Sequence record: PQ356294.1
Direction: 5' to 3' (one strand)
DNA length: 64,000 bases
Source: Escherichia phage Ec_YwIITB1
Each line of letters starts with the position of its first letter. Within the stretch, counting starts at the first letter, position 1. Below, in pieces: positions 9,187-38,127 of the stretch. Below the pieces are notes generated by a model. It saw nothing but the letters and a program-made list of their open reading frames with translations, was not told the DNA's origin and searched no databases. The position numbers and the translations under genes are program-made.

Positions 9187-9425
9187 TGGAAGGTTTAATT
9201 GAAGCTATTAAATCAAACGACCTCGTAGCCGCTCGTAAATTATTTGCTGAAGCCATGGCTGCAAGAACGACTGATTTAATTAAAGAAGAAAAAATCGCTA
9301 TCGCTCGTAATTTCTTAATCGAAGGTGAAGAACCTGATGACGAGGATGATGACGAAGACGAAGATAGTGATGATAAAGACGACAAAAAAGACAAAGACTC
9401 TGACGAAGACGAGGATGATGAATAA
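9186..9425 (+). CDS. 67: prohead core protein gp67 (acidic C-terminus)
   Basis: 79-aa ORF, D/E-rich tail; T4 synteny. Confidence 0.85.
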
Positions 9426-9850
9426 TGCTTCTGATCCCTGAAACTCATGAATTGGTTCTCGAGAATGTCGAAGCACTTATTCCTGAAGCACAGGGTCGCT
9501 TTGACGAATTGTCTTCTGCTTTAAATAAAGACGATATAAATACAATTGTCGAGAATATGCTTGATGATGAAACTGATTTAGCGGTTGCATTAGCTTCTAT
9601 TAATGAAAATATGCCGTTAAATGAATTTATCGTTAAACATGTTTCTGCCCGTGGTGAAATTACTCGCACCAAAGATCGCAAAACCCGCGAACGTAATGCA
9701 TTTCAAACTACCGGGTTGTCTAAAGCAAAACGTAGACAAATTGCTCGTAAAGCTACCAAAACGAAGATTGCCAATCCAGCAGGTCAATCTCGTGCTCAGC
9801 GTAAGCGTAAAAAAGCTCTTAAACGCCGTAAAGCATTAGGATTAAGCTAA
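9425..9850 (+). CDS. 68: prohead core protein gp68
   Basis: 141-aa ORF; T4 synteny. Confidence 0.85.
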
Positions 9851-26118: not shown

Positions 26119-27213
26119 ATGGCAATTGTTAAAGAAATAACTGCTGATTTAATTAAAAAGTCCGGTGAGAAAATTTCAGCCGGACAGAGTACTAAATCAG
26201 AAGTAGCAACTAAAACATACACTGCCCAGTTTCCAACTGGGCGTGCTAGTGGTAATGACACTACAGGGGACTTCCAGGTAACAGATCTATATAAGAATGG
26301 ATTATTATTTACTGCATACAATATGTCATCTAGGGATTCTGGAAGTCTTAGATCGATGAGATCTAACTACTCTTCTTCATCTTCGAGTATTTTAAGTACA
26401 GCTAGAAACACTATTAGTAGTACAGTATCAAAACTATCAAATGGATTAATATCAAATAACAATTCAGGAACAATAAGTAAAGCTCCTGTCGCAAACATTC
26501 TTTTACCAAGATCTAAATCTGACGTTGATACGTCATCACATAGATTTAATGATGTTCAAGAAAGTCTTATCAGCAGAGGCGGAGGTACTGCTACTGGCGT
26601 GTTAAGTAATATTGCTTCAACTGCAGTATTTGGGGCACTGGAAAGTATAACACAAGGTATAATGGCTGATAATAATGAACAGATTTATACGACAGCCAGA
26701 AGTATGTATGGCGGTGCTGAGAATAGAACTAAAGTGTTTACTTGGGATTTGACGCCACGTTCAACAGAAGATTTGATGGCTATTATCAATATCTATCAAT
26801 ATTTTAACTATTTTTCTTACGGTGAAACTGGCAAATCTCAATATGCTGCTGAAATAAAGGGGTATTTAGATGATTGGTATCGTTCTACATTAATTGAACC
26901 TTTATCTCCGGAAGACGCAGCTAAAAATAAAACACTATTTGAGAAAATGACATCGAGCTTAACTAACGTTCTAGTAGTTTCAAACCCGACAATTTGGATG
27001 GTGAAAAACTTTGGTGCAACATCTAAGTTTGATGGAAAAACGGAAATATTTGGTCCATGCCAAATTCAAAGTATTAGATTTGATAAAACACCTAATGGTA
27101 ATTTTAACGGATTAGCTATTGCTCCAAACCTCCCTAGTACATTTACTCTTGAGATTACTATGAGAGAAATTATCACGTTAAACCGTGCTTCTTTATATGC
27201 GGGGACTTTTTAA
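26119..27213 (+). CDS. 48: baseplate tail tube cap gp48
   Basis: 364-aa ORF; T4 homolog. Confidence 0.9.
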   Translation: MAIVKEITADLIKKSGEKISAGQSTKSEVATKTYTAQFPTGRASGNDTTGDFQVTDLYKNGLLFTAYNMSSRDSGSLRSMRSNYSSSSSSILSTARNTISSTVSKLSNGLISNNNSGTISKAPVANILLPRSKSDVDTSSHRFNDVQESLISRGGGTATGVLSNIASTAVFGALESITQGIMADNNEQIYTTARSMYGGAENRTKVFTWDLTPRSTEDLMAIINIYQYFNYFSYGETGKSQYAAEIKGYLDDWYRSTLIEPLSPEDAAKNKTLFEKMTSSLTNVLVVSNPTIWMVKNFGATSKFDGKTEIFGPCQIQSIRFDKTPNGNFNGLAIAPNLPSTFTLEITMREIITLNRASLYAGTF

Positions 27214-37314: not shown

Positions 37315-37344
37315 AAAATAAAAAAGGACTCCCGAAGGAGTCCT
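37315..37344 (-). terminator. intrinsic terminator (reverse strand) after ORF 37349-37567
   Basis: AGGACTCCCGAAGGAGTCCT followed by T-run on reverse strand. Confidence 0.5.
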
Positions 37345-37348
37345 CAAC

Positions 37349-37567
37349 TTATGCTTTCTGCTTACCAAAACGAGAAGCATCATCTCGAAGAACCGCACGT
37401 GCTCGGCGCATGATCTTCTCAACAGTTTGATTGATACGAGAGTTCGACCCACGCTTGTAACCAGCGCGTTTAGAATCACCAACTTTCTTTTCAACTGCTT
37501 TCTTTGCTTTAGCTTGTTTTGCCATTATAAATTCTCTTTTAAATGAAAATGCAGGACTTATTGACAT
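37349..37567 (-). CDS. small basic protein, hypothetical
   Basis: 72-aa Lys/Arg-rich ORF; possible internal start at MAKQAK. Confidence 0.55.
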   Translation of the reverse strand: MSISPAFSFKREFIMAKQAKAKKAVEKKVGDSKRAGYKRGSNSRINQTVEKIMRRARAVLRDDASRFGKQKA

Positions 37568-37878
37568 TGCCTGCTAAAGCCCTCAAGGGGGACATAGGTT
37601 TTTGAATATTTAACGACCAGGATAACCATAAACCCGTCAACATACCTTATAGCTCTTATCTGTTGCACACCGTTAGCTTAAAGGTTCCGGGTTCGATTTC
37701 TCGAGGATAAGATATATACTGATGGATATATAGGCCTTGAGGCGTACTCCCGATTAGCCATCACCTCGGGGTAGCATGCACTTGCCGCTATAAAATAACA
37801 TTCAAGAGGTACACCGTAAAACAAAGTTCGACGGCTCCTCGATTTTAGCTCACACTAAGGCAGTGAATCTCCAATAAA
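37568..37878. other. ORF-free, relatively GC-rich structured region; candidate non-coding RNA or regulatory element
   Basis: Stops in all six frames; 8-bp long-range complement CCTCAAGG (37581-37588) / CCTTGAGG (37735-37742); several local palindromes. Confidence 0.3.
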
Positions 37879-38127
37879 TTACTTCAGTGTTACCACAAAG
37901 TGACGAACTGCTTTTCGTGCAGCAGAAGCCAGTGGCTTAGCATATTTAAGTTCATCTTTTTCCTGAAGCTCAGCAGCTAATGCAGTTTGAGCAGGATTCA
38001 GATGTTTGAAATAACGCAGGATTTCAAGAGCTTCGGCTTCAACATCAATAGATGCGCCATAGTTTTCGTGACCATTATTCCATGCGTTTCGTTGCAGTTC
38101 AAGAGCGTGTTGTAATTGTTTAATCAT
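37879..38127 (-). CDS. rIII: rIII lysis inhibition accessory protein
   Basis: 82-aa ORF; T4 homolog. Confidence 0.9.
   Translation of the reverse strand: MIKQLQHALELQRNAWNNGHENYGASIDVEAEALEILRYFKHLNPAQTALAAELQEKDELKYAKPLASAARKAVRHFVVTLK

Follow-up and report, generated by a model that had tools for sequence, protein, structure and literature searches.

What occupies the non-coding gap between the genes rIII and 30.9 in Escherichia phage Ec_YwIITB1? The stretch analyzed here (record PQ356294.1; 64,000 nucleotides [nt], referred to as the window) is of the genus Tequatrovirus, and the original prediction, made from its sequence, singled out positions 37568–37878 as a structured interval free of open reading frames (ORFs). 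The gap proper covers 37526–37878, with the minus strand as the sense strand, and is therefore 353 nt long, not 310 nt. An RNA of ~145 nt, here called the core, lies between two look-alikes of type III antitoxins, one of the ToxI and one of the TenpI family, both of which the original prediction had overlooked, and it has an accessory distribution. Overall, the locus is best explained as an RNA counter-defense island with a new RNA family at its center, an explanation to which we give an even chance.

A predicted structured RNA in the center of the gap

Judged by covariation among its homologues, the core is very probably a genuine structured RNA. In an alignment of 23 distinct sequences (MAFFT), the six helices, comprising 37 pairs, were paired in 96.5% of the cells, compared with 28–43% when the partners were slid; in 31 distinct sequences aligned to the covariance model of the core (R1), the corresponding values were 97.6% and 26–42%. 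Changes on both sides were found for 25 of the 37 pairs in the 23-sequence alignment, and none of 500 shuffles reached any of these measures. Comparative folding with the orthologous intervals thus revealed a conserved structure in relatives, and the small structured RNA listed among the candidates of the original prediction is strongly supported by covariation across 31 distinct homologues. Folding of the single sequence was uninformative (z = -0.9).

The element closed by helix P1 extends over 37649–37791. P1 encloses a junction that holds the hairpins P3 and P6 and a sub-domain formed by Px around P7 and Py (Table 1). The invariant nucleotides of the family are mostly unpaired (GGCAAGKGCAUG, CCUYAWGGCCUA, GGAMCC…GCUAAC, and GUGUGCAAC). 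RNAalifold recovered the closing helix and three hairpins but missed Px; both Px and Py were found by inspecting variants, and Py shows two independent compensatory events, from C-G to U-A in Slopekvirus and from A-U to U-A in Cronus. The long-range helices proposed by RNAalifold (GUACGCC/GGUGUGC and GGC/GCU) were either invariant or broken in EnC07, Cronus, and K41P2, and Px and the covarying Py were substituted for them. Likewise, a pairing of GCAUGC with GUGUGC was rejected, as it is contradicted by Cronus, in which the change is compensated inside Py instead.

Two local palindromes pointed out earlier, an AT-rich hairpin (37713–37732) and a CTCGAG hairpin (37693–37704), are indeed helices with compensatory changes. 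An 8-bp long-range complement had also been proposed, between CCTCAAGG at 37581–37588 and CCTTGAGG at 37735–37742. Both words are present, but the helix is at chance level, as two perfect 8-mers occur in 401 nt against an expectation of ~1.2, and it is not conserved. It is lost in Mineola, PEi20, SP1, and K41P2, and the downstream hairpin shows no changes that would compensate those in CCUYAWGG. The actual closing helix pairs 37787–37791 with 37649–37653.

The fold was assigned to the minus strand because the 60 G·U cells pair better there, with 96.5% of the cells paired compared with 90.4% on the complement. A GNRA-type loop and the direction of all neighboring genes agree with this assignment. 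Strand specificity also bears on whether the interval is a DNA-level site (an origin, a protein-binding site, or a recombination hotspot) or a small protein-coding gene. The locus is an indel hotspot, the window has a 48-amino-acid (aa) ORF with a TTG start at 37678–37824, and Klebsiella phage Mineola and many other records carry a hypothetical protein of ~48–49 aa annotated over the core (e.g., NC_055748.1, 129412–129561). However, none of the frames stays open throughout the relatives. At least one stop interrupts each frame of the core in all 23 of them, indels of 1–7 nt that break the frame are common, and the longest open stretch in any frame of the SP1 core is 27 aa. A frameshift-restored ORF, which the original prediction had considered as an explanation of the interval, is contradicted by these stops. 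Substitutions in the helices are compensatory rather than synonymous, and the G·U pairs make the helices strand specific, which likewise disfavors the origin-like or protein-binding DNA element suggested earlier. Both a small gene and a DNA-level site are consequently regarded as highly improbable, and the database annotation is corrected in that the "hypothetical protein" lies over an RNA, in a frame that is not conserved.

T4-like phages carry tRNA genes and introns, and the word GGTTCGATT on the plus strand at 37690–37698 resembles a T-loop, on which the original prediction had based the candidate of a decayed tRNA gene or intron remnant. The word is present but antisense to the folding strand. 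ARAGORN detected no tRNA genes in the window or in five related loci, no tRNA or intron family of Rfam was matched at E values of up to 10, and the core is under strong purifying selection, which a remnant would not be. The probability of a decayed tRNA gene or a group I intron remnant is negligible. More generally, none of the 4227 models of Rfam 15 matched 37526–37878 at E values of up to 10, and no gathering-level match was found across the 64-kb window; the Mineola and K41P2 loci likewise yielded no family, and only terminator look-alikes outside the gap were reported. The searchable literature yielded no account of the core and none of look-alikes of ToxI or TenpI in T4-like phages. Hence, we could not find this RNA family described in either Rfam 15 or the searchable literature.

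TABLE 1 Positions of the core RNA, its helices and joiners, and the flanking features in the window
Feature	Position	Strand	Description
Core structured RNA	37646..37794	minus	Whole-model covariance match, 174 bits, E = 3e-47; sole match in the 64-kb window
P1, closing helix	37787..37791 (AUAGC) with 37649–37653 (GCUAU)	minus	5/5 pairs change on both sides; 96.5–96.8% of cells paired
J1/3, unpaired joiner	37771..37786	minus	GGCAAGUGCAUGCUAC; GGCAAGKGCAUG invariant in all homologues; ToxI words AAGUGCA and GCUACC
P3, hairpin	37749..37770	minus	CCCGA/UCGGG outer, AA bulge, GGU/GCU inner, loop GAUG; 5/8 pairs compensatory
J3/6, unpaired joiner	37733..37748	minus	AGUACGCCUCAAGGCC; CCUYAWGGCCUA conserved; includes CCTTGAGG of the original prediction
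P6, hairpin	37713..37732	minus	UAUAUAUC-CAUC-AGUAUAUA; 4 compensatory pairs, e.g., U-A to C-G
Px	37706..37712 (UCUUAUC) with 37654–37660 (GAUAAGA)	minus	5/7 pairs compensatory; UCCGUG/CACGGA in Slopekvirus; encloses P7 and Py
P7, hairpin	37693..37704	minus	UCGA-GAAA-UCGA; 4/4 pairs compensatory; loop GAAA, GUAA, or GGAA in most; GAAAU within
Py	37667..37692	minus	ACCCG/CGG(U)GU; conserved 15-nt loop GAACCUUUAAGCUAA with ToxI word ACCUUUAAG; 100% of cells paired
ToxI-like unit	37835..37878	minus	UUGGAGAUUCACUGCCUUAGUGUGAGCUAAAAUCGAGGAG; single copy, degenerate; local alignment to plasmid repeats upstream of toxN
TenpI-like pseudoknot module	37593..37643	minus	Diverged copy; stem GAC(GGG)/(CCU)GUC; loop GGUU with downstream AACC; A-rich linker CGUUAAAUAUUCAAAA
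Small hairpin	37580..37591	minus	CCCCCUUGAGGG, read from the sequence; 3' arm is CCTCAAGG of the original prediction
rIII	37879..38127	minus	82 aa, upstream neighbor; in tblastn, 100% identical to rIII as annotated in many records of Tequatrovirus
Gene 30.9	37349..37525	minus	58 aa, downstream neighbor; phrog_1427 at E = 2e-31
Intrinsic terminator after gene 30.9	37324..37345	minus	9-bp stem and T-run

Distribution and conservation of the core

Searches with the core alone (135–150 nt) retrieved 406 phage records; 983 records share the flanks. The core is present in at least eight genera of the Straboviridae. In seven of these (Tequatro-, Jiaoda-, Karam-, Kanagawa-, Kagamiyama-, Roskilde-, and Muldoonvirus), its location is the rIII–30.9 gap. 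Phages with the core include Shigella phage sb2 and vB_Eco_F25, which stand out by a 100% identical core or by the closest match overall, as well as fPS-65, JS10, and the Klebsiella phages Mineola and KPV15. In Slopekvirus, it is found at another locus (positions 496–880 of the K41P2 locus and 9222–9640 of a second contig). Small ORFs on the uvsY side precede it there, and a small ORF next to a DNA-helicase gene converges with it; going by the T4 gene order, these flanking ORFs would correspond to uvsY.-2 and uvsW.1. Downstream of the Slopekvirus core, there is no conserved ORF; ~200 nt that are wholly different in the two contigs lead to a bidirectional terminator, which is conserved.

The core is more highly conserved than its neighboring genes. 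Its identity to the Jiaoda-, Kanagawa-, and Karamvirus counterparts is 91%, 90%, and 81%, respectively, compared with 76%, 71%, and 70% for rIII, and in Mineola a 91% identical core is accompanied by rIII at 76% and 30.9 at 75%. R1 found no match in the T4 rIII locus or in the 50–100 kb region of T4, which includes the tRNA cluster and the adjoining non-coding stretch, nor within 8–10 kb around rIII of T2 and T6. The rIII loci of VR7, phiR1-RT, LF82-2, X20, Proteus phage phiP4-3, and Acinetobacter phage Abraxas also gave no match. Such patchy presence among close relatives fits an accessory counter-defense gene. No homologue was detected by blastn of the core against 5,426 E. coli genomes and 72,556 plasmids, and exact-pattern scans of IMG/VR and metagenomes returned T4-like contigs only. 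Pattern scans of GTDB gave no match and then a single one, in a Saprospiraceae metagenome-assembled genome, which was dismissed as a chance hit in GC-rich coding repeats (13.7 bits, partial). Within the searches made, the core is confined to T4-like phages of Enterobacterales.

Its location suggests another possible function, namely, that of a cis-regulatory leader of 30.9 (a riboswitch, a protein-binding operator, or an RNA thermometer), in which the fold would respond to a ligand or protein and thereby control translation or read-through into 30.9. The core is sense oriented between rIII and 30.9 in all seven Tevenvirinae genera listed above, and invariant junction nucleotides combined with variable helices are typical of ligand-binding RNAs. 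In addition, the 30.9 start is bracketed by an 8-nt inverted repeat (37506–37513 and 37573–37580). However, the RNA of Slopekvirus is located elsewhere, with no conserved ORF before the terminator, which is not the arrangement of a 5' untranslated region. The distance from the core to 30.9 and the content of the intervening segment vary, the TenpI-like module being upstream or downstream of the core depending on the genus; T4, T2, T6, VR7, and phiR1-RT have 30.9 without the core; and no conserved expression platform was seen. A leader function is thus considered improbable. As a separate observation, the inverted repeat is perfect (GCTTTAGC/GCTAAAGC) and also brackets the ribosome-binding site of 30.9; it could sequester the start codon, and one such 8-mer is expected by chance.

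Look-alikes of type III antitoxins on both sides of the core

The ToxI-like unit directly adjoins the rIII stop codon (37879–37881). The ToxI sequence used as a query matches pECA1039 with 100% identity, and it does so in small plasmids of E. coli and Salmonella as well. Four ToxI families were compared (Pa/Ec, E. hormaechei, E. coli pU90-1, and Pantoea), of which the last three were taken from arrays upstream of diverged toxN genes. The unit is significantly similar to these toxN-linked repeats, with 35/47 positions matching the Pantoea type and 44/63 the E. coli pU90-1 type (z = 7.2–7.6; 0/200 shuffles). Like the Pantoea type, it shows a single A·G mismatch in the first stem, and by inspection it appears to have a CAC/GUG pairing where the Pa/Ec family has UGC/GCA and the E. 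hormaechei family has CGC/GCG. The ToxI pairing scheme applied here is a provisional one, supported by the covariation in this data set. The unit has AAAAU on its 3' side and the rIII stop codon on its 5' side, and no second ToxI unit was found in the window; it is a single copy and not a tandem repeat with flanking AAAU cleavage sites. The E. coli genomes contained no match to it. A ToxI-like 18-mer at 26391–26408 lies inside a 364-aa ORF and was attributed to chance.

Similar units are widespread among relatives. T4, T2, and T6 also carry a unit adjoining the rIII stop that matches the Pantoea and pU90-1 types. Clearer copies occur at the equivalent position in VR7 (35/41, pU90-1 type; positions 1749–1780 of the locus stretch) and phiR1-RT (37/43, E. 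hormaechei type; ~1749–1790), and the gaps of PEi20 (E. hormaechei type; ~533–627) and Mineola (1641–1670) also hold clearer counterparts. ToxI-like copies were present in 198 phage records, 162 of which are Klebsiella T4-like phages with a 91% identical copy a few nt upstream of the core. A true ToxI copy adjoins the core in Jiaodavirus and Kanagawavirus.

In several T4-like genera, the rIII–30.9 gap holds one ToxI-like unit, and each lineage is nearest to a different plasmid family. This lineage-by-lineage correspondence looks like the pattern of an arms race, and no account of it for T4-like gaps was found in the literature searched. Copies 89–99% identical to the Pa/Ec repeat were also observed in unrelated phages of E. 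coli, Salmonella, Klebsiella, and Vibrio, and the carriers include Bas88 StefiGeyer, XT32, SeKF_80, pzk-kv7, Vibrio phage JSF12, and Yersinia phage TG1. When the ToxI arrays of pECA1039 and two other plasmids were scanned with Rfam 15 at E values of up to 0.01, no model matched the arrays, and RNAI was the only family found. Rfam therefore says nothing about type III antitoxins, and both the antitoxins and their mimics appear to escape routine Rfam annotation.

Relative to the core, the second look-alike is on the downstream side in the window and on the upstream side in other genera. The reference for this module is a 48-nt repeat, present in 2.0 copies on the K. pneumoniae plasmid pC51_003. 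Behind it come a terminator and then the gene of a 161-aa protein, whose score against the NCBIfam model NF047358 for the TenpIN toxin is above the threshold (104 bits compared with a cut-off of 90). Matches to this repeat were obtained for SP1 (39/50; z = 10.7), EnC07 (z = 7.5), PEi20 (z = 6.6), and Mineola (z = 6.3), and the Cronus module is also strongly similar to it. The module family forms an H-type pseudoknot with two covarying stems. In the module-family alignment, two of the three pairs of stem 1 are compensatory, and stem 2 covaries by inspection (GGUU/AACC, UGGUU/AACCA, GUAGU/ACUAC, and GUGAG/CUCAC, with AGGAA/UUCCU on the plasmid). The diverged copy of the window is tentatively assigned to the TenpI family because of its alignment with the strongly matching relatives. 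In E. coli genomes, two weak 26-nt matches to TenpI-like units (E = 7), in a colicin K immunity gene, were taken as chance.

The gap and its neighboring genes

The order of the minus-strand genes around the gap (cd, 31, rIII, 30.9, 30.8, and 30.7) matches that of T4, and the surrounding 1.7 kb is 97–98% identical to many Tequatrovirus genomes. Gene 30.9, a name also used in the annotations of PEi20, VR7, and phiR1-RT, starts with MAKQAK at 37525, in agreement with the T4 and fPS-65 annotations, and not at the upstream ATG at 37567. No Pfam match was found for its product. The protein is very basic and encoded directly downstream of the RNA island, and a role as an RNA-binding partner is conceivable. 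The hairpin and T-run terminator that the original prediction had assigned to the region is present on the minus strand at 37324–37345 but follows gene 30.9; a sub-threshold Rfam match to Atu_C8 coincides with the same hairpin.

The higher GC content noted in the original prediction was confirmed, with 43.7% in 37568–37878 and 46.2% in the core compared with 36.1% in the whole window. The description of 37568–37878 as free of ORFs holds insofar as the ORFs overlapping it are only 34–48 aa long, none spans it, and every frame of the core has stops; the boundaries are those of the true gap given above. When aligned to relatives, the gap is a mosaic with indel polymorphism. Approximately 150 nt are present in the window, fPS-65, and Mineola and are missing from T4. 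Conversely, a 45-nt hairpin segment, GUCUGAUUAAUGAUUUGCGAAUCAUUAUAGUUUUAAGAC, is found in T4, fPS-65, and VR7 and is missing from the window between 37795 and 37834. Part of this segment, UGAUUUGC, is ToxI-like and might represent what is left of a second repeat. Hairpins of the form GUACCC-N4-GGGGCUUG adjoin the core in several genera, upstream or downstream depending on the genus, and also occur in T4, which has no core.

Escherichia phage phiWec187 (Justusliebigvirus), a member of an unrelated family, has a 95% identical segment comprising the 3' end of rIII, a gap without the core, and the start of 30.9. This copy (positions 1500–1940 of the locus stretch) sits within the tRNA gene cluster of the phage. 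Inspection of the alignment by eye suggests that the 42-aa ORF annotated there is a fusion in which the start of 30.9 is joined to the final 26 codons of rIII. The copy suggests horizontal transfer of the gap across phage families.

A possible role in counter-defense

The whole gap is probably transcribed as part of the rIII–30.9 message, given that no promoter-like site was found inside it and that the terminator lies after 30.9. The core would most likely act in trans, its conserved single strands providing a surface for binding a host factor and thereby capturing or occupying it. This factor would most plausibly be a defense ribonuclease of the ToxN/TenpN kind or another RNA-dependent defense, and the core would complement the flanking antitoxin mimics, which would serve as decoys. 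The counter-defense role predicted for the core from sequence comparison falls slightly short of an even chance, and a type III toxin as its target is unlikely. A more specific proposal is that of a modular island, in which single-copy ToxI and TenpI mimics, tuned in each lineage to a different plasmid variant, are combined with a 145-nt trans-acting inhibitor or decoy of RNA-dependent abortive infection. This proposal is doubtful; if true, it would represent a new class of viral anti-defense RNA, overlooked as T2, T4, and T6 are without the core at this locus.

Could the core itself be derived from ToxI? An expanded pseudo-ToxI array might have diverged into a single scaffold that still blocks toxins of the ToxN family. 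ToxI words covering nearly the whole 36-nt unit occur in exposed parts of the core, and ToxI 6-mers are enriched in the unpaired parts of Tequatro-, Jiaoda-, and Kanagawa-type cores (11 compared with 1.4 expected; 0/1000). The adjoining true ToxI copies in Jiaodavirus and Kanagawavirus and a core length of about four 36-nt units would also agree with such an origin. However, the enrichment is gone in the EnC07, EcS1, Cronus, and Slopekvirus cores, which retain the fold. Neither local alignment of the core to the four ToxI families (z = 0.4–0.9) nor semi-global alignment to a tandem array, with the core treated as four degenerate repeats (z ~1.5), was significant. In addition, the core has no internal repeat, and R1 found no match in pECA1039. 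As the sharing of 6-mers is limited to certain lineages and the alignments are not significant, the core was not filed as a member of the ToxI family, and its derivation from ToxI is considered quite unlikely.

The loss of the ToxI words and the two nonsignificant alignments also weigh against the counter-defense island, as do the following observations. Conservation in the core family does not extend to the CUA triplet, a critical element of ToxI (PMC3475682). Neither a promoter-like site inside the gap nor a 3' end of the core RNA was identified. The antitoxin-like units of the window are the most degenerate of the series, and its TenpI-like copy taken alone is a weak match (z = 2.1; 54/1000), as is that of T4 (z = 3.3). 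A single repeat of the PhiTE pseudo-ToxI did not neutralize ToxN (PMC3475682), which suggests that the single-copy units described here may be weak or inactive on their own. The invariable location of the core upstream of 30.9 in Tevenvirinae would also suit a cis-regulator. Strong restriction by toxIN has been reported for T2, T4, and T6 (PMC9391042). In Serratia phage X20, all three modules are missing from the 114-nt gap, and infection by this phage is aborted by ToxIN as well as by TenpIN (PMC5449768). The sensitivity of these four phages to type III systems fits the counter-defense island, but it is a correlation drawn from the experiments of others.

A further alternative is a self-processing or stabilizing RNA, either a new self-cleaving ribozyme or a nuclease-resistant fold that sets mRNA ends and frees or protects the flanking units. 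The compact fold with its conserved unpaired junctions would be compatible with this function, as would the position of the core within a polycistronic message between two small RNA modules that would need release or stability. However, no ribozyme family of Rfam 15 was matched, even at E values of up to 10, and no conserved cleavage-site signature was recognized. Furthermore, the core also occurs without antitoxin-like neighbors, as the ToxI-like unit is absent from SP1 and none is present in Slopekvirus. This alternative is very unlikely. The counter-defense island is preferred over each of these, and the combination of modules, together with the lack of the core at the rIII locus of T2, T4, and T6, suggests an RNA toolkit that may be directed against bacterial suicide defenses.

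Comparison with known systems

To our knowledge, phage counter-defenses are almost all proteins. The PhiTE pseudo-ToxI, active only after expansion, is the sole RNA example in the searchable literature. The present analysis adds a covariation-supported RNA family found in ~400 sequenced T4-like phages between look-alikes of two RNA antitoxin families. It makes testable whether phages routinely deploy RNA decoys against type III systems, whether single-copy mimics are functional, and which partner the 145-nt RNA has.

T4 encodes the stable RNAs C and D (species 1 and 2), which are small non-coding RNAs in the tRNA cluster. The core resembles them in being a small phage-encoded non-coding RNA in a T-even genome, but the absence of an R1 match in the 50–100 kb region of T4, including the tRNA cluster, indicates that it is not homologous to them. 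Like the orphan structured RNA motifs discovered by comparative genomics (PMC2864571, PMC8040213), the core is defined by covariation and has multiple helices and conserved junctions; unlike them, it matches none of the Rfam 15 models and is confined to T4-like Enterobacterales phages. TifA, the ToxN inhibitor of T-even phages (PMC9391042, PMC10853763), is a protein encoded next to dmd, whereas the elements described here are RNAs at another locus.

The ToxI and TenpI antitoxins belong to type III toxin-antitoxin systems, which act by abortive infection and are borne on enterobacterial plasmids (pECA1039, pU90-1, E. hormaechei, Pantoea, and K. pneumoniae pC51_003); they consist of 36–48-nt pseudoknotted units with A-rich tails, and the phage modules share sequence with them. 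The pairings appear to covary alike in both groups, as seen in UGC/GCA, CGC/GCG, and CAC/GUG for ToxI and in AGGAA/UUCCU compared with AGGUU/AACCU for TenpI. However, a real type III antitoxin is a tandem array that is flanked by a promoter and a terminator and immediately precedes the toxin gene, while the phage copies are single and have no adjoining toxin gene.

The closest parallel to the unit at 37835–37878 is the pseudo-ToxI of Pectobacterium phage PhiTE (Blower et al., 2012; PMC3475682), which is likewise an intergenic, non-coding ToxI look-alike in a phage, and the counterparts in VR7, phiR1-RT, Mineola, and PEi20 are of the same kind. The PhiTE element has 1.5 repeats and works after expansion to 4.5–5.5 repeats or after recombination, whereas the window has one unit, a putative mimic. 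The core RNA differs from the PhiTE element in that it is not a repeat and has no significant alignment to ToxI. A further difference from PhiTE is that, in the T4-like phages studied here, different phage lineages match different ToxI families.

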